The notes: generated by a model not told the origin, from the letters alone. A stretch of 64,000 bases of DNA from an uncultured Candidatus Saccharibacteria bacterium (GCA_964448295.1 CAYUVV010000003.1:9543-73542), one strand, 5' to 3'. Counted from the stretch's first letter, positions 13,915 to 64,000 are shown. Translations and numbers: made by a program.

Positions 13915-15819
13915 CTATTCGACCACCTTGTCATCCCCCGGGCGACTGCCGACATCGTTTACTGCTGTTGTTAAGTTTCGAATTTCATAGCCAACCGTCG
14001 TATTGGTAACAACATCACGACCGGTTAAGACTGGTTCGGAAACTAAAACAGGCGAAGTGCCCACTTGGCTTAGACTCGGCGCCAATGCCACCCGGAAAAA
14101 TACCTCCCGGGCCGCACCCGATAAGCCGACCCCCGCCGCTACACCGCCCAAAGACCAAGTAACTCGACCGTTTTCCTCGTCAAACACTAGTCCGGAATCA
14201 GGCGGCGAAACGCTATCGAGCCAACGAACATAAGAAGGCAAGGTGGCAACAACAGCCACGTCCGCCACCTCGTTTAAAGCGTTGACCACCGACCAAGCGA
14301 TGGTATAACTCGTCTCCTCGCCCACGCGGGGTGGAATAGGACCATGATTAGCTAGAGGGCCGCCAGCGTGCCAAACCTGGCCAGACAGCTGAACCACAGT
14401 TTGCGTTTTTAGAGTTAAAGATTCGGTCTGTTCAATAATTTCCGCTTGCCCGCCCGGCGCCAAACGTCGTCCGCGTAAAGTAGCCACCAGCTTGATTTCA
14501 GGAACCGCCAACCGGTTAAAGTTGGCTGCTAAATCACGAAAAGACAAGGTGGTAAAATTAAAACTGGTTTTGCCGTCGTCGCCTGGCATTAAGCGCGCGA
14601 GCAACGGCAACGTCTGACGATTCCAAACGATTTCATTCCGCCCGGATTGATAAAAGCCGTTGGGCGCATTCACCGAGCGCTTATCGATGATCTCACCCGT
14701 CAATGAAACAGTTAACTCCGCCGCCGTCAGCTCTTCGGCGAGATTGTTCTCCCAACCCAAATCCACGCGCACCAGCTCGTCCAAGGGAATAACGACTTCG
14801 CCGCCCGAAATACCATTGGCCGTTAAAGAAACAGCAAGTAACGGACGACTAATCCCTACCTCCTTGATAGCCGAATCGTAAATTGTCGCTAAAGACTCCT
14901 GCGGCTCATCGCTACCGGCCAAACCCACATTCGCCCGAAAAGCCCTCCGGTCGCCGTCCTGACCAGCGATAACCCCGCGGAAAATGACAGTCCGCTCGGC
15001 GCCCGCGGCTAAATCACCGAGTCGCCAACGGTTCTCACTAACCACGGGCGCCGGCGTGGCTGTGAGAAAGGTAAAGCCGGGCGGGTACTCCAAGGTCAAA
15101 TTAAGACTGTCTAAAACCGTTTCGGTATTGGAGCGTACCACCACCCGACCAGTAATTTCTTGGCGGCTATTTATTTCGTCGGGCAAATCAAGCGTCAAAA
15201 CGACTGGGGTGGATGAGATCAGAAGATTGGCCTCGGATGTTTTATCAAAAATGGCGTTGGAGTCAGCCAAGCGATACTCCACCGTAACTCGCAAAGTTTG
15301 CACGCTATTCAATTCACCAAAAACCACCGCACGCAAAGTTTTTTTCTCCGTCGCCCCGGCCGCAAGTTGGCCAAGGCTCAAGCGTTCCCGCGTTAGACCA
15401 GTGTTAACGCCAGTTGCCAACGAACGACTCAAGGTCGGGTATTCGACGATCAAAAACACAGATTCGATTGTGGTTTGATTTTGATTAGTCAAAGTAACTT
15501 CCCAACTGACCTCGTCACCCGCACCAACCTCGCGCGGCCCGGTGATAGATAAAGCAATGTTATCCGCCGAAACGAGGCGTTCGCCGCCCCAGAATACAAC
15601 GAAAGACCAGCCGGCAGCTGCCAAAAAAAAGGTCAAGGAAAAAATAAACAGCCAACGCCAAATACGCCCGCCGCCGCGCGGCTGGCGCGGCGGCTCATAA
15701 ACGGGGGTTGAGGCGGCGGAGCGAAAAAAGCGCGAGCGGGTTATTCCCCCACCAGAAAACTGCCGACGATAAAGATTCTCCCGGGCGCGTTCCAAATTTT
15801 CGTTACTTCCCAACGGCAT
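13915..15819 (-). CDS. membrane-anchored surface protein with tandem Ig-like (DUF11/CARDB-like) repeats
   Basis: Basic N-terminal segment. One TM helix (WRWLFIFSLTFFLAAAGWSFVVFW). Then about 6 repeated beta-sandwich-like segments. No enzymatic motif. Confidence 0.55.
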   Translation of the reverse strand: MPLGSNENLERARENLYRRQFSGGGITRSRFFRSAASTPVYEPPRQPRGGGRIWRWLFIFSLTFFLAAAGWSFVVFWGGERLVSADNIALSITGPREVGAGDEVSWEVTLTNQNQTTIESVFLIVEYPTLSRSLATGVNTGLTRERLSLGQLAAGATEKKTLRAVVFGELNSVQTLRVTVEYRLADSNAIFDKTSEANLLISSTPVVLTLDLPDEINSRQEITGRVVVRSNTETVLDSLNLTLEYPPGFTFLTATPAPVVSENRWRLGDLAAGAERTVIFRGVIAGQDGDRRAFRANVGLAGSDEPQESLATIYDSAIKEVGISRPLLAVSLTANGISGGEVVIPLDELVRVDLGWENNLAEELTAAELTVSLTGEIIDKRSVNAPNGFYQSGRNEIVWNRQTLPLLARLMPGDDGKTSFNFTTLSFRDLAANFNRLAVPEIKLVATLRGRRLAPGGQAEIIEQTESLTLKTQTVVQLSGQVWHAGGPLANHGPIPPRVGEETSYTIAWSVVNALNEVADVAVVATLPSYVRWLDSVSPPDSGLVFDEENGRVTWSLGGVAAGVGLSGAAREVFFRVALAPSLSQVGTSPVLVSEPVLTGRDVVTNTTVGYEIRNLTTAVNDVGSRPGDDKVVE

Positions 15820-45999: not shown

Positions 46000-46171
46000 A
46001 TTTGAGTTCTATTCTGGTGCTGGCATATTAACCTTTGCGCAAACCCATTTCACACGCGCGGAGCGCGTGGTGAATCGGGACTGAATCGTACGCTCTCCAC
46101 CCCGCCCGCCCTGTGCGCGCACAAATCCCAGCCGTTTTGAGGAGATATTATAAAACGGCGGGGATTGCTCC

Positions 46172-46678
46172 CTACATCAACTTTTTCATCCAAAAGAAAA
46201 ACCTTTTCGCTAAACTAACGATTATCAAACTAGAATACTTTTTGTAAATCTTACCAGTACTATCTTTTACATAGACATAGAAAATATCACTCACTTCTAC
46301 TGGAATAAACTTACCATTTTCAGAATCGTAGAAAGTAAATTCTTCCTGTCCCTGTGGTTTTAGCTGTTCACCTATTACAACACGGCGATGTTCTTCTTCT
46401 TTTGTTTTTCCGTCCCATGTCTTTATGCCAAAGGCAATAATATTGATACTCCGCCGAGTGCTTGTGTTTGTTGCGTTTATCCAAAACCCACTTCGACCGG
46501 CCCCTCTTTTATCAAAAATATATGTTAATTTGACTCTCTTATTTTCAAAGTAAATTGTTACAAGCAACGTCAAGAACAAGAGGAGCGTTGTAATCCATTC
46601 GGCCGGGTTGGCTTTGAATTGAGAAACAGCGAAAGATAGCATCGAGACTAAACTATTGATACTACGGCTGAACACCAT
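46172..46678 (-). CDS. hypothetical single-pass membrane protein (island gene 3)
   Basis: TM helix WITTLLLFLTLLVTIYF followed by a 120-aa beta-rich domain. 17-nt overlap with the protease gene. Confidence 0.5.
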   Translation of the reverse strand: MVFSRSINSLVSMLSFAVSQFKANPAEWITTLLLFLTLLVTIYFENKRVKLTYIFDKRGAGRSGFWINATNTSTRRSINIIAFGIKTWDGKTKEEEHRRVVIGEQLKPQGQEEFTFYDSENGKFIPVEVSDIFYVYVKDSTGKIYKKYSSLIIVSLAKRFFFWMKKLM

Positions 46679-47852
46679 ATTGGCGCTGTAGGCGTAATAG
46701 TTCTTCTCTTGCTGTTACTCTATATTCGTCAAAAAGAGCGTCTGCTTCATCAATGACTTGCGCAGAAGACCCACCATCTAATGCATACATTGCCAGTTCA
46801 CTCACCTCGCTGATATAAGCTGTCAAGATTCTCCTCAAGTTTTGAAGTTCTGGTTCAGCGATTAACTTATTTTTTACTATTATAATTTCATAGTAATATT
46901 TAGCGCAACTCTTTTTATAGTTAGCCATTTCCTCATCAATATTATCGGGAATCATTTCCGGAGTACCATATTTAACTAAATTATTTCCTTTACCAAGAAT
47001 TGTGCAGTTAATATCTGCCTCAACAACTTTTTCCTCAAGTACATTTTCAAACTCAACTATCTGTGCTTTGATTCTTGAATAATCTTTCTGTGGCGCAGGT
47101 TGTGATGGTTTTGGTTGTGACGCCGTTGCTTTCGGTTTTGGTGCAAGAATTTCTCGACCATTTTTAAGATCGGGAATCAATCCTTTTACGGCATTTATCG
47201 GAATTGCCAATTTTATCGTTTCTCCGATTGTGACTCCCTCGATAGACTCACCAAAACCCGCCGAATTTATACCTACAACTTCGCCGGAATGATTGACGAG
47301 AGGTCCGCCACTATTCCCCGGATGAATTTCAGCAGAAGTTTCGAGAAAAGTTACGTCTCCGTCACTAATGCGCCTGGAAATTGTTCCCTCCTTAAAACTC
47401 ACATCACCCTCCAATCCGAACGGAAAGCCGAGTGTAAAAACATTATTACCCTGCACTATCGCGTCAGAATCTCCGAATTTTACGAAAGGAAAATTTTCCC
47501 CGCTAATTTTCAAAATTGCAACATCGATAATTTCGTCTCGTCCTTTTACTTCGGCAGAATAAAGTTGTCCGTCAGACAATTTTACTTTCGCGGTGGAAAC
47601 GTCCGCGACAACATGAGCGTTAGTTAAAATATAGCCTTCCGCGTTAATTATCATTCCACTACCAACGCCTTCGGTTGTTTCGATATAAACTGTCGCGGGT
47701 TTTACCTCCGTAACAATTTCAGTGTTTGATAAAACTTTTTGTTCATTCCCAATTTTAGGTAGGTCAAAGTTTTTGTAAGCAACAACACCTCCGGAGATCA
47801 AGATAAGACCGCCCAAAATAATAAGCCCTAGTTTTGTGGTTAATATATTCAT
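46662..47852 (-). CDS. membrane-anchored trypsin-fold (S1/HtrA-like) serine protease with unknown C-terminal helical domain instead of PDZ
   Basis: N-terminal TM helix. Catalytic His (LTNAHVV), Asp (DVAILKI), Ser (GNSGGPLV). Pro/Gln linker, then a 170-aa domain with no recognised family. Confidence 0.75.
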   Translation of the reverse strand: MNILTTKLGLIILGGLILISGGVVAYKNFDLPKIGNEQKVLSNTEIVTEVKPATVYIETTEGVGSGMIINAEGYILTNAHVVADVSTAKVKLSDGQLYSAEVKGRDEIIDVAILKISGENFPFVKFGDSDAIVQGNNVFTLGFPFGLEGDVSFKEGTISRRISDGDVTFLETSAEIHPGNSGGPLVNHSGEVVGINSAGFGESIEGVTIGETIKLAIPINAVKGLIPDLKNGREILAPKPKATASQPKPSQPAPQKDYSRIKAQIVEFENVLEEKVVEADINCTILGKGNNLVKYGTPEMIPDNIDEEMANYKKSCAKYYYEIIIVKNKLIAEPELQNLRRILTAYISEVSELAMYALDGGSSAQVIDEADALFDEYRVTAREELLRLQRQYGVQP

Positions 47853-48067
47853 TTCGTGAAGTAGTCTAATGATTTATTGTAGATTTTTGCTAACTCATCT
47901 AATTCTACCGCATCTATCCGCCGCTCGCCTCGCTCTATCTTGGAAATATACGCCTGCGGTTTCTTTAATTGCTTCCCCGCCTCAATTTGCGTCAAATCTG
48001 CCTCTAGACGAGCTTGGCGGAGACGCTGGATGAGTTTTTGATATTTTGCTCGGTATTTACTCGCCAT
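47849..48067 (-). CDS. XRE-family helix-turn-helix transcriptional regulator
   Basis: LRQARLEADLTQIEAGKQLKKPQAYISKIERGER is the classic XRE HTH. 4-nt overlap with the protease gene. Confidence 0.8.
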   Translation of the reverse strand: MASKYRAKYQKLIQRLRQARLEADLTQIEAGKQLKKPQAYISKIERGERRIDAVELDELAKIYNKSLDYFTK

Positions 48068-48180
48068 AGATATACTAACATGATATAAACGATTGTGGAA
48101 TATACCAAGATGGTTTATTATGTATTAGGGGATGGTAGCGGCGAATCAAAACCAAAAATTTCCTTCGAAGTTTCTATCTG

Positions 48181-48262
48181 TGCGCGGGAGAGGATTTGAA
48201 CCTCCACGACTTGCGTCATACGCCCCTCAAGCGTACGTGTCTACCAGTTCCACCACCCGCGC
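48181..48262 (-). tRNA. tRNA-Leu (GAG)
   Basis: Acceptor stem GCGCGGG/CCCGCGC. Anticodon loop TTGAGGG. Long variable arm. Discriminator A. CCA not encoded. Confidence 0.8.
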
Positions 48263-53995: not shown

Positions 53996-54973
53996 CTAGT
54001 GAAACATGATCCACAACAAAATGAGCACGCCCAGCCCCAAGGCCAAAAAATTGAAACGTCGAATCAGCCAAGGAGCCAGCACCGGCCCCAGCCAACGTCC
54101 GGCGGCCGCGACCAAAAAAAATCGCGCGCCGCGACCCAGCGCATAAGCCAGACTGAAAACACCAAAGTTAATTTGAAAGAGACCCGCGGCCAAATTAAAA
54201 ATCTTATCGGGGATTGGGGTAAACGAAGCCACGAGGGTGGCGATGAAGGCATTGGACGTAAGCCATCCAGCCGCAACCTGCATCTGCGATTCCCAGCCAT
54301 ACAACGCCACCAGCGGCGCGCCCAACCAGTCGAAAGCCCACCACCCCACAAGATAGCTAAACCAACCGCCGACAAGCGAACCAAGGGTAGTAACAAGAGC
54401 CAAACGCCACCAACGTCGCGGCTCACGATAGGCCATCGGCAACAAGGCCACATCCGGCGGGATGGGGAAAAACCACGCTTCAGCGAAAGCAATTACGCCG
54501 AGCCACGCGAGACCGCGGCGCCCGCCAGTTTGACGGATCATCCACTCGCGCCAAGCGCCGTGGCGCGCCGGTGGAAAGGGATCGTGACGTTCTTGTCGAT
54601 CAAGAAAACTGCGCAGGATGATCGCCGCCGCTCGATCGTCAATCACCCCCCTTTCCCGCTCGCCCGCGGGTGAACGAGCGGCTTCCGACGTCGTCAACCA
54701 TTCCGATTCCCAATGCACTTCAAGTCCGCTAGCTCGCAAGTCCCGCGCAAAGACCTCGGCCGCGGCGGCTATCGGGTTATCCTCACCGCGATAATCAACC
54801 GAGCGACCGATCACTACCGCGCCAACTCCCCGCTCGCGGGCCAAGCGCGCCACGCGCGCGGCCAAATCGGCGCCGTTCGGCCAAATGGCGAACGGCGCGG
54901 GAAAGCGACCTGACTCGTCGGTGAGCGCCAAACCAACTTTTTTCTTACCATAATCCAAACCCAGCCAACGCAT
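53996..54973 (-). CDS. ruvX: RuvX/YqgF nuclease fused to a DedA/YqaA-type (VTT-domain) membrane module
   Basis: N-terminal 140 aa reads MRWLGLDYGKKKVGLALTDESG...AAAIILRSFLD, which is the YqgF fold. C-terminal 180 aa has 4-5 TM helices with the FFPIPPD...LYGWES...FIATLVASFTPIPDKIF pattern of DedA/YqaA. Confidence 0.65.
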   Translation of the reverse strand: MRWLGLDYGKKKVGLALTDESGRFPAPFAIWPNGADLAARVARLARERGVGAVVIGRSVDYRGEDNPIAAAAEVFARDLRASGLEVHWESEWLTTSEAARSPAGERERGVIDDRAAAIILRSFLDRQERHDPFPPARHGAWREWMIRQTGGRRGLAWLGVIAFAEAWFFPIPPDVALLPMAYREPRRWWRLALVTTLGSLVGGWFSYLVGWWAFDWLGAPLVALYGWESQMQVAAGWLTSNAFIATLVASFTPIPDKIFNLAAGLFQINFGVFSLAYALGRGARFFLVAAAGRWLGPVLAPWLIRRFNFLALGLGVLILLWIMFH

Positions 54974-57490: not shown

Positions 57491-59127
57491 ACAAGAGCTT
57501 GCAAAAAGACTAGATTAAACACAGGCCCTCGTAGTTCAACGGATAGAACGCGGGATTGCGGATCCCGTAATGTAGGTTCGATTCCTGCCGGGGGCACCAA
57601 AATCTGACTTTCTGCAAATTCACCGACCATTTCGGTGGACGCGCGAAGCGCGTCCCAAGCATTTCCTCCCGACAAATCTTCTCCGCTCGGCGCGCGCAGG
57701 CGCGCCTCGCGGTTGGCCAAGACGAGGTTCGAGCCAAAGATTTCTTTGGCCGCAACCTTTTTGGCAAAAAGGTTGCCCTCCCGCGCGATTTCAGGCAGAT
57801 TTTCTGCCTCTTTTATCCATTCCGCCATCAGTTCGAGCCAGCCAGTCCGCTTTTGTTCAATCCGCGCCATTTGTTCCTCCAGCGACTTCTTTTCGGAAAG
57901 TAGTTTCGCTTTTTCTGTTCGGTAGATTTCGCGCTCGATATCCTGTTCAAGATAGCCATCAAGAAGTCGCTGGAGTTTCGTTTGTATGGCGCGGATTTTG
58001 GTTTCGGCTTCCTGAACAAAAGCGGTTGCGGATTGGGCGGCTTCAGTTTTCTCTTTTTCAAGCATAGTGGTTAGTTGTGCCGCCCAATCCGGTCTCAAAG
58101 AAAATTTTTGTAATAGAGATGATAACTGGCGATCCAGTTCCTCTTGGCGAATACAAGGTTCTGGACATTTGAGTTTTGATTTCTTGGTGCAGTGGTAATA
58201 GACATACTCGTGGATATTTCCATTTTTCTGTTTCTTCACCTTGTATTCGCCAGTTATCATCATTCCACATGAGGCGCAGGAAAGAAGTCCGCAAAAAGCT
58301 TGCGGTTCATTTTTCTGTTTGTGGTGCGGACGACCTCGCTGTTTCAAAATTTCCTGCGCCTTGTCCCAAATTTTCTTTGAGACAACTGGCTGGTGCTTGC
58401 CCTCGTGAACTTCGCCAGCGTAGCGGAATAATCCGGTGTAAAACGGATTGGAAAGGATAAAAGTAATTCTGTCTCGGTGGAGTCGCTTGCCGTTTTTTGA
58501 ATGGATGCCGGATTTCGCCAAAAAGTTTGAGATGTCTTCAAGTCGGCTTCCGTTTTTCGCGTACAACTCAAAGGCGCGGCGGATGATAGCTGACTTCTTT
58601 TTATCCACGACTACTGTTTTTGTTCGCACATCGTTGATATACCCAACAGGAGCAAGACAAGGATATTCGCCGCGCCTTACTTTTTGGCGCAATCCTCGCT
58701 TTGTGTTTTCGGCAAGCGAATCCACATAGTATTTGCTCTGCCCAAAGGCGATATTGAGCATGAACTTTCCTTGCGAGGTATTTTCGCACCAAAACTGCGG
58801 AAATTTCAGGTCCGCAAGTCCACCGCCGTCCAAAAGATAGATTATCTTTCCTCCGTCAACAGAATTGCGCGCCAACCTGTCCGGATGCCAAGCAAGAATA
58901 GCGTTTGCATCGCCTCGCTCTATGCGCGAAATCATTTTGTTGAAGATAGGACGACCAGTAATTTTCGCAGATTGTTTTTCGATAAATTCCTCGGCGATAT
59001 GCAAACCCTCTTGCTTGGCAAAGGCGCGCAATTCCGTGATCTGCGCTTCGATAGACAAAACTTGTTTATCCTCCACATCGGTGGACTTGCGGGCGTAGAG
59101 AAGATATTTGTAGTTGTTCATGCTCAT
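57472..59127 (-). CDS. large serine recombinase (resolvase catalytic domain, recombinase domain, zinc ribbon, coiled coil)
   Basis: YARKSTDVEDKQVLSIEAQ contains the catalytic Ser. Zinc ribbon CGLLSCASCG...YYHCTKKSKLKCPEPC. The C-terminal 90 aa of the ORF are read through IR1-L and the antisense of tRNA-Arg, so the true stop is uncertain. Confidence 0.85.
   Translation of the reverse strand: MSMNNYKYLLYARKSTDVEDKQVLSIEAQITELRAFAKQEGLHIAEEFIEKQSAKITGRPIFNKMISRIERGDANAILAWHPDRLARNSVDGGKIIYLLDGGGLADLKFPQFWCENTSQGKFMLNIAFGQSKYYVDSLAENTKRGLRQKVRRGEYPCLAPVGYINDVRTKTVVVDKKKSAIIRRAFELYAKNGSRLEDISNFLAKSGIHSKNGKRLHRDRITFILSNPFYTGLFRYAGEVHEGKHQPVVSKKIWDKAQEILKQRGRPHHKQKNEPQAFCGLLSCASCGMMITGEYKVKKQKNGNIHEYVYYHCTKKSKLKCPEPCIRQEELDRQLSSLLQKFSLRPDWAAQLTTMLEKEKTEAAQSATAFVQEAETKIRAIQTKLQRLLDGYLEQDIEREIYRTEKAKLLSEKKSLEEQMARIEQKRTGWLELMAEWIKEAENLPEIAREGNLFAKKVAAKEIFGSNLVLANREARLRAPSGEDLSGGNAWDALRASTEMVGEFAESQILVPPAGIEPTLRDPQSRVLSVELRGPVFNLVFLQALVYKPSR
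57525..57599 (+). tRNA. tRNA-Arg (anticodon reads GCG)
   Basis: Near-identical backbone to the tRNA-Arg(TCT) at 51356. Anticodon loop TTGCGGA. Encoded CCA. Its last 5 nt (CACCA) begin inverted repeat IR1. Confidence 0.75.
57595..57731. repeat. IR1 left copy (137 bp), begins with the tRNA-Arg 3' CACCA
   Basis: Exact reverse complement of 59194..59330. Contains internal hairpins (GGACGCGC-GAA-GCGCGTCC and GGCGCGC-GCAG-GCGCGCC). Confidence 0.85.
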
Positions 59128-59193
59128 ATGTTTTGGTTAGTTAATATTTTTGGGCAAAGCAAATCCGAGACAGAATTAAAATCACGCGGGAGA

Positions 59194-59330
59194 CGAACCT
59201 CGTCTTGGCCAACCGCGAGGCGCGCCTGCGCGCGCCGAGCGGAGAAGATTTGTCGGGAGGAAATGCTTGGGACGCGCTTCGCGCGTCCACCGAAATGGTC
59301 GGTGAATTTGCAGAAAGTCAGATTTTGGTG
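59194..59330. repeat. IR1 right copy (137 bp), ends TGGTG
   Basis: Reverse complement of 57595..57731. Overlaps IR2-L by the 5-bp TGGTG. Confidence 0.85.
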
Positions 59331-59474
59331 TATCTTTACAACAAGGCGCGAACCTTTTTCCTGAAAAACTTTTAACCAACTCGCTCCGGCGGGGCGGGCA
59401 GGAAAGGGGGTGAGGGGGAAAGGAATGCCCGCCCCGCCTCCGCTCGTTTTCGCCGCTTCGCGGCGGCGCGCCAG
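59326..59474. repeat. IR2 left copy (149 bp), starts TGGTG
   Basis: Reverse complement of 60902..61050. Contains a 13-bp stem GGCGGGGCGGGCA/TGCCCGCCCCGCC with a 25-nt G-tract loop. Confidence 0.85.
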
Positions 59475-59486
59475 AAACTTTTTAAT

Positions 59487-60161
59487 ATGAATATTTATCC
59501 CGATGAACTTTCGCATAAATATTCCGAATTGAGGGAAAATTACACTGCTACGGATGAAAAAACTTTTTCGATACTGAATCAAATTGGAGTTCGCGGAAAG
59601 AAAGTTTTGGACTTCGGTTGTGGCGACGGGCGATACTCTTTTCAAATTGCAAAACTTGGAGCAAGCGAGGTTGTCGGTATTGATGTAAGTCCGGCGATGA
59701 TCGAAATCGCTAACCGCGAACTCCAAAATCAGAAAATCGAAAAAGTTAAATTTCTTGAAGCGGACGGAAACAATCTCCCATTCGGAGATAAGTTTTTCGA
59801 TGTAATTTTTTCTAATTTTGTTCTTCATCATTTTGAAAATACACTTAAGCCGCTTCAAGAAATTTCTAGGGTTTTGGATAAAAACGGATTTTTTCTTGGA
59901 ACTTTCAATACTGCGGAGGTTAGTGACGAAAAACTCTTTAATACCGAAATTCCTTTGCAACTTGGAAAAGAAAATTTTGTTGTCGTGCATAATTTCATAA
60001 AGTCCGATGAAGAAATACAACAAAATTTCGAAAAAGTTGGATTGAAAGTTCTCCAATATCAGGAAGAGGAAAATCCGTTTTTATCCATTGAGCCGACCTA
60101 TCCAAACAAGGAAAAAATTGGTAAGATAAAGACAATGATTTGTCTGGCGCAAAAAATATGA
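59487..60161 (+). CDS. class I SAM-dependent methyltransferase (small-molecule/protein type, not a DNA MTase)
   Basis: Motif I VLDFGCGDGRYS. Motif II IGIDVSPAMIEIA. Post I-like FDVIFSNFVLHH. AT-rich. Confidence 0.8.
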   Translation: MNIYPDELSHKYSELRENYTATDEKTFSILNQIGVRGKKVLDFGCGDGRYSFQIAKLGASEVVGIDVSPAMIEIANRELQNQKIEKVKFLEADGNNLPFGDKFFDVIFSNFVLHHFENTLKPLQEISRVLDKNGFFLGTFNTAEVSDEKLFNTEIPLQLGKENFVVVHNFIKSDEEIQQNFEKVGLKVLQYQEEENPFLSIEPTYPNKEKIGKIKTMICLAQKI

Positions 60162-60889
60162 CTTTATCACTTGCAATATTTTGGATAATCATAGTTTCAG
60201 TCTTTGGTGTGCTTGGCGCATGGTACGCTCGCCGCTATAATCGTCCCGACGCGCTTATCGCTTTTTATGTTACTTTGGTTGTTTTCTCTAACATTGCTGT
60301 TTCAAAAACTATCGCTTTTGATTTTGGATTTACGCAATTTTTTGCGCCAGCCACTGTCCTCATTTTTTCCGTAACATTTCTCTTGACCGATATTGTGAAC
60401 GAGCGATTTGGAAAGAAAGAAACCCAGAGGATGATTTTAATTGCCTTGTTTGCCCAAATCGCTCTCATTCTCTTTTCATATCTAGTGCTGAAAGCGCAAG
60501 GCGCACCCTTTTTCCAAAATCAGGCCGCGTTTGAAGCGTTGCTAAGTAATGTGCCGCGCATAGTTGTTGCTAGTTTGATTGCGTTCTACATCAGCGAAAA
60601 TTTTGACGCTTACCTTTTTCACTGGTTCCGCAAACTCACTGGCGGCAAACATCTATGGATGCGCAACGCTTTCAGCTCCATTCCGGCAATGCTTTTGGAT
60701 AGCATTCTTTTCATCTCGCTCGCGTTCTATGGAGTCATGCCTATCATCCCCCTCATCATCGGGCTTTCCGTAACAAAATGGCTTGTCGGCGTGATAGACA
60801 TTCCATTCATGTATCTTTCGCGAGCGATTCTCGGAAAGCATACGAGCGAAGCTCATGTGGAAGCTCCGCTTCCACATTCAGGAATGTAG
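60140..60889 (+). CDS. YhhQ/VUT-family (DUF165) queuosine-precursor transporter-like membrane protein
   Basis: Six TM helices with the YhhQ family pattern (FFAPATVLIFSVTFLLTDIVNERFGKKE ... FISLAFYG). Confidence 0.7.
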   Translation: MSGAKNMTLSLAIFWIIIVSVFGVLGAWYARRYNRPDALIAFYVTLVVFSNIAVSKTIAFDFGFTQFFAPATVLIFSVTFLLTDIVNERFGKKETQRMILIALFAQIALILFSYLVLKAQGAPFFQNQAAFEALLSNVPRIVVASLIAFYISENFDAYLFHWFRKLTGGKHLWMRNAFSSIPAMLLDSILFISLAFYGVMPIIPLIIGLSVTKWLVGVIDIPFMYLSRAILGKHTSEAHVEAPLPHSGM

Positions 60890-60901
60890 TTTTTGAAAGA
60901 A

Positions 60902-61050
60902 CTGGCGCGCCGCCGCGAAGCGGCGAAAACGAGCGGAGGCGGGGCGGGCATTCCTTTCCCCCTCACCCCCTTTCCTGCCCGCCCCGCCGGAGCGAGTTGG
61001 TTAAAAGTTTTTCAGGAAAAAGGTTCGCGCCTTGTTGTAAAGATACACCA
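60902..61050. repeat. IR2 right copy (149 bp), ends CACCA
   Basis: Reverse complement of 59326..59474. Confidence 0.85.
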
Positions 61051-61146
61051 GAAAGGAAATCGCAGGTCAGAGCTCGCTACACGTAAGCGGCGGTTTCGGG
61101 TTTCAGATTTGACATATACCCCATAGGGGGTATATGATGACTTTAT

Positions 61147-61422
61147 ATGAAATATATGGACGACAAAAATAAGTCAAAAGTAGTCCGTCGCCTCAAGCTT
61201 TTAGAAGGCCAGCTTCGAGGACTTCAAAAGATGGTTGAGAACGACACCTATTGCATTGACGTGATAACTCAAACGTCGGCGGTAAAACAGGGTTTGTCTA
61301 ATGTTGAAGACTTACTACTTGAAAACCACCTGGGCCATTGCGTTGTTCATCAGATGCAGTCCGGTCAAATAAAAAAGTCTAAGGAAGAAATCATCAAAGT
61401 TTATAAACTAAAGCGAAAATAA
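61147..61422 (+). CDS. csoR: CsoR/RcnR-family metal-sensing repressor
   Basis: RLKLLEGQLRGLQKMVENDTYCIDVITQTSAV...HLGHCV provides the Cys/His/Cys Cu(I) ligands of CsoR. Confidence 0.8.
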   Translation: MKYMDDKNKSKVVRRLKLLEGQLRGLQKMVENDTYCIDVITQTSAVKQGLSNVEDLLLENHLGHCVVHQMQSGQIKKSKEEIIKVYKLKRK

Positions 61423-61423
61423 T

Positions 61424-63718
61424 ATGCATACACAGACATACAAAGTAAAAGGGATGCATTGTGCCTCGTGCTCATCGGTAATCGAAAAGACTTTCAAAAA
61501 AATCGTGGGGGTAGAGTCAGCGGAAGTAAACTACGGCACAGAAAAAGCCAAGGTCTCATTTGATCCCTCAAAAATAAGTCCGCACGACCTATCCAAGCGC
61601 ATTGAGCCACTCGGATACTCTCTGGATATCCCCACTTCTGCCGAAGAGATGGGTGGGCCAGCAGAAAAGCACGCCGCTCACCTCGGACTTAACCAAACAA
61701 AAAAAGAGAAGTTAGCAGAAGTCGGAGATATGCGGGCTAAAGTGCTCTCGGCCATTCCGCTTGCCATCATTGCCGCTTTTATCATGGGTTGGGATATTCT
61801 TGCTCAATACGGGACCGTGGCTGAAATGGGCGTAACGGCGAAAACATTTTTTCATCACTTACTGCCTCTCCTTGCAACCTACATTCTTTTTGTGGTTGGC
61901 AAACCATATCTGCTCGGATTTTACAGATTCATTCGTTATGGCAAAGCGAACATGGACACGCTTATCGGCATTGGAACCGTTGCCGCTTTTATATACAGTT
62001 TTGCCGTTACTGCCTTTGAGGAGGTACTAAAACCTTTTATAAATGTTGAGTATCAATACTACGACGTGACGATCGTGGTCATTACGTTTATCGCCCTCGG
62101 CAAATATCTTGAAGCTCGTTCAAAAATAAAGACGGGCGATGCGATTGAAAAACTGCTCAACCTCCAAGCCAAGACTGCGCTTGTGGTTCGTGGCGACAAA
62201 GAAGTCGAGATTTCAGTAAACGATGTTAAGCACGGAGACCTGGTCATTATTAAGCCTGGGGCCAAGATTCCAGTGGACGGCGTAATAACCGAGGGGTCAT
62301 CCTTTATCGACGAGTCTATGGTCACCGGCGAACCGATGCCGGCACAAAAAAGGATCGGTGATCCTGTCGTCGCGGGCACAATCAACACAAGCGGCTCGTT
62401 TGTTTTCAAGACTACTAAAGTCGGATCGGAGACCTTGCTCGCTCAAATTATCAAAATGGTTGAGGATGCCCAAGGGAGCAGGGCGCCGATTCAAGCGCTG
62501 GCAGACAAAATCTCTGCTGTCTTTGTACCTATTGTCCTTGTCATCGCATCCCTTGCGTTAGGAACTTGGCTCATTGTCGGTTCTCAATATTTGGGATTCT
62601 CTCAAGCGCTGTCATTCGGGCTTGTGTCATTTGTAGGCATTCTCGTGATCGCTTGTCCCTGTGCGTTAGGGCTTGCCACACCGACCGCTATTATCGTTGG
62701 CGTAGGTAAGGGTGCGAAAGAAGGCATCCTCGTCAAAGACGCCGCGACTCTTGAGAAACTCCATAAGGTGAATACGGTCGTGGTTGATAAGACGGGAACG
62801 ATCACCAAAGGTAAACCGACTTTAGTAAACGCGCACAGCCTCTCTGATAAAAACGAGACCGAGCTGGTATCAATCATCGCTTCGCTTGAAAAAAAATCCG
62901 AACATCCAATCGCGCATGCGATTGCAAGCTATGCTCAAGAAAAAAATATTCCTCTTTTAGAAACTTCAGAATTTGAAAGCATGCAAGGCAAGGGCTTAAA
63001 GGGTAGAGTCAAAGATATCGAATATTTTGTTGGCAACGCAGGGCTTGTGAGCGACCTCAAACTTTCTTTTGATGTTGCAAAATTAAATGAGTTTACTTCT
63101 CAAGGTAAAACGCCCGTCATTCTTGCAACCAAAGAAAAGGTACTCGGCTTTGTCATGGTGGCTGATGAAATAAAGCAGGAATCAAAGCAGGCTGTTGCCG
63201 ATCTGCATAAGTTTGGAATCAGAGTGGTCATGCTTACTGGCGATGACGAGAAGACCGCAAAGTATATCGCCTCTTTGGTGGGTATTGATAACGTCGTCGC
63301 CAATGTTCTGCCGCAAGACAAACTTGAAAAGGTTCGGGCAATTCAATCTCAGGGCCGAATAGTGGCAATGGCTGGTGATGGAGTGAATGACGCCCCAGCG
63401 CTCGCTCAGGCGGACGTCGGTATCGCCATGGGGACGGGCACGGATGTGGCCATTGAGTCGGCCGGTATCACTCTTCTTGGTGGCGATATTTCAAAGCTAG
63501 TAAAGGCTATTAAGCTGTCCAAAATCACCATGCGCGGTATCAAGCAAAATCTTTTCTGGGCGTTTATTTATAACATCGTGGGTATACCGCTTGCGGCTGG
63601 AGTTTTTTATCCGGTTTTTGGATGGCTTCTTAATCCGGTTTTCGCTGGATTTGCCATGGCGATGTCATCGGTGTCGGTGGTGTCGAACTCACTCCGAATT
63701 AAAGCCAAAAAAATATAA
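61424..63718 (+). CDS. copA: copper-translocating P1B-type ATPase
   Basis: N-terminal HMA GMHCASCSSVIE. TM CPC motif IACPCALGLATP. DKTGTIT. GDGVNDAPAL. Confidence 0.9.
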   Translation: MHTQTYKVKGMHCASCSSVIEKTFKKIVGVESAEVNYGTEKAKVSFDPSKISPHDLSKRIEPLGYSLDIPTSAEEMGGPAEKHAAHLGLNQTKKEKLAEVGDMRAKVLSAIPLAIIAAFIMGWDILAQYGTVAEMGVTAKTFFHHLLPLLATYILFVVGKPYLLGFYRFIRYGKANMDTLIGIGTVAAFIYSFAVTAFEEVLKPFINVEYQYYDVTIVVITFIALGKYLEARSKIKTGDAIEKLLNLQAKTALVVRGDKEVEISVNDVKHGDLVIIKPGAKIPVDGVITEGSSFIDESMVTGEPMPAQKRIGDPVVAGTINTSGSFVFKTTKVGSETLLAQIIKMVEDAQGSRAPIQALADKISAVFVPIVLVIASLALGTWLIVGSQYLGFSQALSFGLVSFVGILVIACPCALGLATPTAIIVGVGKGAKEGILVKDAATLEKLHKVNTVVVDKTGTITKGKPTLVNAHSLSDKNETELVSIIASLEKKSEHPIAHAIASYAQEKNIPLLETSEFESMQGKGLKGRVKDIEYFVGNAGLVSDLKLSFDVAKLNEFTSQGKTPVILATKEKVLGFVMVADEIKQESKQAVADLHKFGIRVVMLTGDDEKTAKYIASLVGIDNVVANVLPQDKLEKVRAIQSQGRIVAMAGDGVNDAPALAQADVGIAMGTGTDVAIESAGITLLGGDISKLVKAIKLSKITMRGIKQNLFWAFIYNIVGIPLAAGVFYPVFGWLLNPVFAGFAMAMSSVSVVSNSLRIKAKKI

Positions 63719-63720
63719 CA

Positions 63721-64000
63721 ATGAATAAAACATACACACTTCATGTTTCTGGCACCCACTGCGCTTCATGCAAAATCTTCATTGAAGATACTTTGAACGA
63801 ACAACTTGGCATTGAGCATACGAGTGTTGATCTAAAGAACGAAACAGTATCATTTGAGACTACTCTCGACGAGAGCCAGCATAAACTCGCCGAGATGCTG
63901 ACGGAAAAAATAAAGCACAACGGATACGCTCTTTCAGTCGAGAAAAAGGTAAAAGAGAAAAGTGGTCAGAGGGTTATCTGGCAAGCACTGCCGATCGGGC
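63721..64000 (+). CDS. heavy-metal-associated (HMA) domain protein, partial at the window edge
   Basis: MNKTYTLHVSGTHCASCKIFIED is an HMA GxxCxxC-type metal-binding fold. May be a CopZ-like chaperone or the N-terminus of a second ATPase. Confidence 0.55.
   Translation, partial: MNKTYTLHVSGTHCASCKIFIEDTLNEQLGIEHTSVDLKNETVSFETTLDESQHKLAEMLTEKIKHNGYALSVEKKVKEKSGQRVIWQALPIG

Follow-up and report, generated by a model that had tools for sequence, protein, structure and literature searches.

Nested inverted repeats at a Saccharibacteria tRNA-Arg gene: a probable integrative element of two modules whose attachment site is present twice, in inverted order

The closest described counterparts of the locus reported here are the integration modules of large serine recombinases (A118/LI, phiC31, Bxb1, SPbeta SprA). 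In the structures of the A118/LI integrases, the zinc ribbon contacts attP half-sites at a position about 5 bp further out than in attB half-sites. Genomic islands at tRNA genes are a second point of reference; they duplicate a 15–50 nt segment of the tRNA 3' end as direct repeats, and most of them use tyrosine recombinases. Tycheposon-like cargo elements are the subject of a preprint (bioRxiv 10.1101/2020.12.28.424599). The stretch of DNA analysed here, referred to as the window, comprises 64,000 nt from an uncultured Candidatus Saccharibacteria bacterium (GCA_964448295.1, CAYUVV010000003.1:9543-73542). Positions 57600–61050 are best explained, with a probability of roughly 0.6, as one 3.46-kb two-module integrative element that is inserted at the CCA end of a tRNA-Arg gene, carries its long attachment site twice in inverted order, and belongs to a large undescribed family of the Candidate Phyla Radiation (CPR, Patescibacteria).

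The locus resembles the serine-integrase modules in enzyme class and in domain order (resolvase, recombinase, zinc ribbon), and likewise in a partner-site identity of only 3–5 nt, in hybrid junctions and in a motif offset between attP- and attB-type half-sites. Unlike them, the window element contains a second, intact and inverted copy of its site. In the family, the conserved arms measure 130–430 nt as compared to about 25 nt per half-site and hold covarying hairpins, the downstream half of the target is unconserved, and the targets are generic 3' ends of many tRNA genes and of the transfer-messenger RNA (tmRNA) gene rather than one locus. The window element also differs in showing neither phage or conjugation genes nor an evident directionality factor, and the sequence similarity of its recombinase to the solved integrases is weak (E about 1e-8). 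With tRNA islands and tycheposon-like elements it has in common the small size of the cargo carrier, the location at tRNA genes, variable accessory genes and tandem accumulation; in contrast to these, only 3–5 nt are shared with the target, a direct repeat of the tRNA end is lacking, and the modules lie inside inverted repeats.

Other systems are more distant. In the Hin system the recombinase gene is located inside the invertible segment, and Hin, Gin, Cin and Pin are similar to the window locus in combining a serine recombinase gene with DNA bracketed by inverted repeats. However, these are small enzymes (about 190 aa) with a C-terminal helix-turn-helix (HTH) domain, sites of about 26 bp and an enhancer, whereas the window features a 551-aa large enzyme, arms of 137–149 nt, two adjacent segments and an integration junction. 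Tn4451 and Tn5397 (TnpX, TndX) also employ large serine recombinases to move small cargo via a circle, with relaxed site asymmetry, but their ends are directly oriented, crossover takes place at a GA dinucleotide and long inverted repeats are lacking, as opposed to the CAC/CTC core at tRNA ends and the inverted duplicate site found here. IS607 elements have a small recombinase with an N-terminal DNA-binding domain, ends devoid of inverted repeats, and low specificity, and the window differs on each count (catalytic domain first, long inverted repeats, strict targeting of tRNA and tmRNA 3' ends). The yeast 2-micron plasmid (FLP/FRT) offers a formal analogy only, as the putative circle would likewise have two inverted site-bearing repeats and one unique region encoding the recombinase; it is a eukaryotic plasmid with a tyrosine recombinase, replication functions and no chromosomal integration, while replication genes are absent from the window element. 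Chained cargo modules recall cassette arrays, again by analogy only. In the literature searched, we found no description of this architecture, nor of serine-recombinase elements at tRNA ends in CPR. An earlier note, made by inspecting the sequence, had already set the arrangement apart from the attL/attR direct repeats of a serine integrase and from IS607-type ends, and one of its two models invoked a type undescribed for serine recombinases. This assessment stands, but neither of the two models that it proposed, tandem invertible segments or abutting elements with long terminal inverted repeats (TIRs), provides the best fit.

The anatomy of the window locus is defined by two pairs of inverted repeats, x/x' and y/y' (Table 1). 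Sequence comparison reproduced what the earlier note had claimed for them, i.e. their positions, lengths and exactness as well as the sharing of CACCA/TGGTG. The CACCA at 57595–57599 represents the last acceptor base, the discriminator and the CCA of tRNA-Arg and is at the same time the first 5 nt of x; TGGTG at 59326–59330 is common to x' and y, and CACCA at 61046–61050 closes y'. We refer to the recombinase module between x and x' as S1 and to the cargo module between y and y' as S2. Were 57595–61050 closed into a circle, its outer ends would join as y'-CACCA-x, the same sequence that the internal site shows in reverse complement. In 64 kb, chance cannot produce exact inverted repeats as long as these (137 and 149 nt). 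Elsewhere in the window neither x nor y is found again in full, and a short degraded relic at 46.0 kb was the only further match. A downstream copy of the tRNA-Arg 3' 25-mer is absent as well, and matches with up to three mismatches are confined to the tRNA itself and an unrelated tRNA-Arg(TCT). An Rfam scan of the locus found the tRNA alone. In Logan unitigs (k = 31) of two independent read sets, breaks fall exactly 30 nt (k − 1) into x, where unitigs end at 57624, and exactly 30 nt inside y', where they begin at 61021. A de Bruijn graph breaks in this manner where a genuine repeat ends, so the raw reads contain the branch points.

Table 1. Coordinates of the element and its parts, counted from the first nucleotide of the window.
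Feature	Position	Strand	Basis
Large serine recombinase open reading frame (ORF), 551 aa	57472..59127	-	ORF call and Pfam
tRNA-Arg(GCG), integration target	57525..57599	+	ARAGORN; Rfam tRNA 66 bits; sequence
T-loop of tRNA-Arg(GCG), GGTTCGATTCC	57575-57585	+	Sequence
x, outer copy; attL-like junction tRNA-CACCA-x	57595..57731	+	Exact 137-nt inverted repeat of 59194-59330
Central GC-rich x hairpin, GGACGCGC-GAA-GCGCGTCC	57637..57655; second copy 59270-59288	.	Folding and family alignment
Unique 66-nt leader from inner x copy to recombinase start codon; presumed promoter region	59128..59193	-	Position only
Intact internal attP-like site x'-TGGTG-y (reverse complement of y'-CACCA-x), dividing the two modules	59194..59474	+	Sequence
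y, inner copy, 149 nt	59326..59474	+	Exact reverse complement of 60902-61050
SAM (S-adenosylmethionine)-dependent methyltransferase	59487-60161	+	Pfam
Vut_1/YhhQ-family transporter	60140-60889	+	Pfam
y', outer copy; attR-like junction y'-CACCA-flank	60902..61050	+	Exact inverted repeat of y

To place the locus in context, 80 genome loci and 80 metagenome loci with homologous recombinases were compared with themselves; pooled counts refer to the 84 loci with two complete x arms. Close homologues of the recombinase run into thousands, nearly all of them in metagenome-assembled genomes (MAGs) of CPR/Patescibacteria. Many of these contigs stop at the gene edges or hold only the gene, which is the signature of flanking repeats. 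Contigs with the same architecture, though differing in sequence, number well over 100 and stem from a variety of projects and assemblers. Over the 84 loci, the x arms have a median length of 137 nt (range 93–185) and are at least 99% identical to each other in 41 cases, 95–99% in 30 and less in 13. The earlier note had suggested looking for copies at other tRNA 3' ends, and these are abundant: in 71 of the 84 loci, the arm at the 3' end of the recombinase adjoins a tRNA gene on the opposite strand, and the targets comprise 27 isoacceptors for 11 amino acids. A second pair of inverted repeats (129–430 nt) was identified in 21 contigs of sufficient length, directly next to the upstream arm in 18 of them and to the 3' arm in the other three. 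Elements about 90% identical to that of the window are found at tRNA-Gly, tRNA-Val and tRNA-Arg in MAGs of different candidate phyla; the family has thus been mobile recently and with many targets. The large serine recombinase is its only conserved gene. Outside the 84 loci, as its x arms were not scored complete, L024 (9270–15149) carries an element in flipped arrangement at the 3' end of a tmRNA gene, with an AdoCbl-II riboswitch (14866–14936) in the cargo and ORFs that by eye, rather than by family search, resemble ribonucleotide-reductase fragments.

All loci with both repeat pairs share one order of parts. Read in gene orientation, the flank is followed by core'-y, cargo, y'-core-x, about 66 nt, the recombinase gene ending in x'-core', and the tRNA. 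Three junctions are constant, namely tRNA-core-x (attL-like), y'-core-x (intact) and y'-core-flank (attR-like). The y'-core-x junction was recovered in about 60 loci, with a conserved y' end and a core matching the neighbouring tRNA. The flank past the distal y arm is unconserved and often shows a hairpin with a T-run, i.e. the tRNA's own terminator. Comparison of the junctions confines the presumed exchange to GCAC (L042), CAC (L081) or CTC (L058), or 3–5 nt when the window locus is included. The core follows the discriminator base of the tRNA and reads CAC, or CTC at tRNA-Thr (discriminator U), where the internal site is CTC as well. As far as can be read from the sequences, the junctions have the short core and the hybrid attL/attR composition of serine integrases. 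Conversely, the single attP expected for such an enzyme is not what the locus displays; instead, an attP-like site appears twice, in inverted order. The nested repeats thus follow from a site that is carried twice and inverted, with one copy split.

The protein itself is a bona fide large serine recombinase. Pfam identifies Resolvase (PF00239, 4.7e-22, residues 10–154), Recombinase (PF07508, 3.2e-17) and Zn_ribbon_recom (PF13408, 9e-07), with the catalytic domain first, followed by the Recombinase domain and the zinc ribbon, and no N-terminal HTH. Residues Y11, R13 and S15 of the YARKSTD motif are invariant across 16 homologues. Distant matches were obtained to the A118 integrase and SPbeta SprA, the C-terminal region aligning with the A118 integrase structure 4KIS at E = 9e-9. 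Exact-protein look-ups of the recombinase, the methyltransferase and an upstream 178-aa ORF gave no matches, and viral contigs scanned with the recombinase yielded no relatives, leaving a phage vehicle unsupported.

The C-terminus of the recombinase deserves separate consideration. The earlier note had seen no end to the frame within x or opposite the tRNA, and the ORF call confirmed this: the gene has no stop of its own before the core and reads on through x and the tRNA antisense strand (...PPAGIEPT...). The minus strand of x encodes the last, poorly conserved ~45 codons. Among homologues, protein conservation is very high up to FGSNL, which coincides with the inner edge of x, and collapses beyond. 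This edge lies at the same place family-wide (ggc/TCGAACC, encoding G-S-N-L). Most database homologues end in a "...GIEP..." tail, which is the antisense translation of the T-arm of the target tRNA. The annotated GIEP C-termini are read-through from a missing stop codon and are spurious as protein. As conservation stops at FGSNL and is followed by GIEP tails, x' is to be understood as an element at the level of nucleic acid that is entered by the ORF.

The arms are highly structured. Folding yields three hairpins in x, while y has a 13-bp stem closing a 25-nt loop and another stem of 6 bp, in agreement with the hairpins described before. In the family alignment of the central GC-rich x hairpin, 97% of the cells are paired and double compensatory changes occur in five of nine pairs (e.g. 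GGGACGCGC/GCGCGTCCC, GGGCGGCAC/GTGCCGCCC, GGGCGTTGC/GCAACGCCC), a covariation score that was reached by none of 500 shuffles. This covariation reveals selection on self-complementarity, pointing to a role as RNA or as single strand or cruciform. A second helix near the x core is unsupported, with 65% paired in the family alignment. Two sub-threshold Rfam matches of the GC-rich hairpin to CRISPR-DR28 were dismissed as chance. A simple promoter and terminator scan gave nothing inside the arms and nothing in the leader upstream of the recombinase gene, similar A/T-rich versions of which are seen in relatives.

The ~45 nt of y' nearest the core show family-wide conservation (…TTTTGAAAATAGGTTCGAGCnnGGTnnnATAAAnA-core) and include a T-loop-like GGTTCGA. 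The y' arm of the window shows the T-arm-like GGTTCG at 61022–61027, 24 nt ahead of the core. Relative to the arm start, GTTC is found at 23 nt in y' and at 19 nt for the tRNA T-loop, a constant offset of +4. By its sequence, the y' arm mimics the T-arm and acceptor end of a tRNA. The +4 offset of GTTC is suggestive, by analogy, of the offset between attP and attB half-sites of serine integrases. The distal part of y is modular, with a few sequence families that are 90–95% alike between elements with unrelated cargo. As y families are common to elements whose cargo is unrelated, y is part of the backbone, and cargo is swapped between conserved arms.

The cargo of the window comprises the methyltransferase and the YhhQ-family transporter, as Pfam bears out. 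The methyltransferase start codon is located 12 nt past the inner edge of y, so the putative cargo promoter is probably inside y. From locus to locus, the genes between the y arms are unrelated whereas the y arms are shared.

These observations can be combined into a mechanism. The attachment site would be long and composite (y'-core-x), with a core made up of the tRNA's last acceptor base, its discriminator and C74(CA). The element would hold this site twice, inverted, dividing S1 with the recombinase from S2 with the variable cargo. Recombination of one copy with the 3' end of tRNA-Arg(GCG) would split it into tRNA-CACCA-x on the left and y'-CACCA-flank on the right, while the other copy would remain intact in the middle. 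One split and one intact copy account for S1 being bracketed by x/x', S2 by y/y', and for the 5-nt core at all three junctions. The recombinase would catalyse exchange inside the 3–4 nt core, the free form would be a circle with two inverted sites, and integration would have occurred into the empty site GGGGGCACCA/GAAAGGAAATCG (57599/61051). The internal site may still be active, which would explain recombinase modules located between two tRNA genes and chained modules. Finally, the GC-rich hairpins may act at the level of RNA or single strands, e.g. as insulators or terminators around the recombinase gene. Two further schemes were considered and rejected. Direct integration of a single-stranded "dumbbell" would cap the chromosome ends with hairpins, although folded forms may matter elsewhere. 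The core is not palindromic, which argues against a cointegrate formed from two circles that have palindromic sites.

Several points weigh against an integrative element of this type. A second inverted site, and arms far beyond the ~50 bp that serine integrases need, are left unexplained by it. In L046, L064 and L004, mismatches between the x arms cluster in the 20–35 nt beside the core, with no differences in the remainder of the arm; an element may thus have two site copies that differ exactly where binding of the recombinase would be expected. In an old copy the arms have drifted (x 96%, y 88%, ORF truncated), so the host alone does not hold the arms identical, and intact copies owe their identical arms either to recent insertion or to a process that depends on the element. 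A directionality factor is not evident, and the cargo of the compared loci has no second conserved gene, although sequence cannot prove the lack of such a factor. The free circular form was not recovered: contigs P0002 and P0003 are integrated copies, the perfect (y,y) contigs L131 and L147 are probable assembler graph walks, and L064 is real but its junctions differ. Nor was the empty site of the source organism found among the recovered sequences; a unitig from a third sample stops exactly at 57599 with no partner contig, merely a hint of a second continuation after CACCA. Furthermore, the cases with two tRNAs could be chimeric assemblies of two similar copies.

The alternative that survives best, albeit an unlikely one, is a pair of adjacent invertible segments, S1 and S2 being flipped by the recombinase or by homologous recombination of the host, which would change the orientation of recombinase gene and cargo towards the tRNA promoter and the neighbouring genes. 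This can coexist with an integrative element. It is attractive in that long perfect inverted repeats enclose either segment, and after a flip the recombinase gene would be read into from the tRNA, which could plausibly make an on/off difference. The orientations found among relatives bear on this question. In the major class, comprising about 36 loci of the first set and most of the second, y' lies upstream and the tRNA on the 3' side. In about nine loci (e.g. L024, L051) a tRNA or tmRNA gene lies upstream and y' or the contig end on the 3' side; in L037, L039 and L050 the module is flanked by two different tRNAs; and in L064 y' is found on both sides, with two junctions that differ near the core and non-identical arms. 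Hence S1 occurs in both orientations relative to the tRNA, flipped elements being L024, L051, L098 and others, and cargo in both relative to the recombinase. However, the orientation of S1 is strongly biased (about 71 versus about 10 loci, ~85:15), where frequent flip-flop should give a mix. Within the major class, the cargo genes point away from the recombinase in 58 of 86 cases (versus 28). In flipped loci, nine of nine cargo genes are oriented as if the whole element had been reversed and not S1 alone, weak evidence from three loci only. Moreover, flipping leaves every junction sequence unchanged, and recombination of an attL-like with an attP-like site is non-canonical for large serine recombinases. 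A check for orientation polymorphism, using one identical protein present on 23 contigs, gave the same context and orientation in 10 independent assemblies among the matches listed; this copy is decayed.

We consider it rather improbable that the family represents not a simple island but a modular recombination system in which S1 ends in x arms, cargo ends in tRNA-mimicking y arms, and any junction of the type "tRNA-like arm-core-x" is live. With each insertion a docking site (y'-core-flank) would be formed anew and a spare active site retained, and the long, hairpin-rich arms would act as single strands or RNA; for example, a strand taken up by naturally competent CPR cells may fold into a double-stranded site, as CTX phage DNA does for XerCD. 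Such a system would entail serial cargo capture, module chains and tRNA-to-tRNA rearrangements of the chromosome.

Two abutting long-TIR elements had been proposed in the earlier note; taken as separate transposons, an autonomous x-recombinase-x' and a non-autonomous y-cargo-y', they are very unlikely. Each unit formally has terminal inverted repeats, and there are recombinase modules between two tRNAs without an adjacent y pair (L037, L039, L050) as well as chained modules (L109). The two-tRNA cases would fit recombination of the internal site of an integrative element with a second tRNA gene. In L109 (1–4762) the chain reads x1-recombinase1-x1'-core'-y-cargo-y'-core-x2-recombinase2-x2'-core'-tRNA-Arg(CCT), with the first recombinase intact and the second a frameshifted pseudogene, indicating that an occupied tRNA site or y'-core-flank junction was targeted a second time. 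Serine recombinases perform conservative reciprocal exchange and not two-ended cut-and-paste. The cargo segment has no recombinase and its content is unrelated between loci, yet its arms are conserved, and no y-bracketed cassette was seen away from a recombinase module or its relic in ~160 loci examined. The x and y ends always meet via the same core as the tRNA end, in keeping with the attL/intact/attR logic of every locus, and as x and y share no sequence, it is unlikely that one enzyme would read both as equal "ends".

That the repeats result from an assembly artefact (collapsed or misjoined repeats), which the earlier note had named as a possible undoing, or belong to a dispersed family of the repetitive extragenic palindromic (REP) kind has next to no likelihood: inverted repeats do yield foldback contigs in the family (L131, L147) and a short x/y-like relic exists elsewhere in the window, but the architecture recurs in well over 100 contigs across projects and assemblers, many of these were assembled with k = 141, which exceeds the 137-nt arm, the raw-read unitigs of two read sets branch as expected, and 64 kb contain no further full x or y copy.

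A number of additional observations concern decayed and rearranged copies and the surroundings of the element. At 46001–46100, 19 nt identical to the core end of an x arm are followed by TGGTG and then by a y arm (E = 8e-8), and at 48140–48182 a degraded x' end adjoins the 3' end of tRNA-Leu(GAG) (48180–48262, minus strand). The DNA in between is low in GC (~40%) and encodes a 168-aa ORF and a trypsin-like peptidase, which are cargo-like, and no recombinase. The region 46001–48182 looks like a recombinase-less, degraded relic of the same family. Contigs L131 (1–5945) and L147 (1–2532) have perfect terminal inverted repeats of 1718 and 476 nt, with a partial recombinase gene or x and y arms; most likely these are assembler foldback paths across identical arms, which should be taken as a warning in annotation. 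Downstream of the element, 61051–64000 has a GC content of ~45% as compared to ~54% upstream of the tRNA and encodes a CsoR-type repressor (61147–61422) and a copper P-type ATPase (61424–63718). A consensus-like promoter overlaps the palindrome ATACCCCATAGGGGGTAT at about 61115–61135. Possibly this is an older island, or else cargo that accumulated at the same tRNA. From DRR784963, a 14.4-kb Logan contig runs past the end of the window. Upstream, 53996–54973 (minus strand) holds a 325-aa ORF; its counterpart in Logan contig L174 is annotated as RuvX (Holliday-junction resolvase-like) with VTT/DedA membrane domains, an unusual fusion.

CPR/Patescibacteria constitute a large share of bacterial diversity, yet next to nothing is known about gene exchange among them. 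Judged by its thousands of homologues in many candidate phyla and at many tRNA genes, the family of integrative elements described here appears to be among the commonest small mobile elements of these bacteria. It also appears to be without a described counterpart, as it combines a duplicated inverted site, very long structured arms, an arm that mimics tRNA, and a universal T-arm/CCA target. Large serine recombinases are sought as tools for genome engineering, and an enzyme family with a generic tRNA-end target, apparently specific in a single half-site only, would help in engineering uncultivated lineages and in learning how such proteins read DNA. Lastly, the architecture explains why CPR assemblies break so frequently at tRNA and recombinase genes, and how the spurious "GIEP" tails of annotated recombinases arise.

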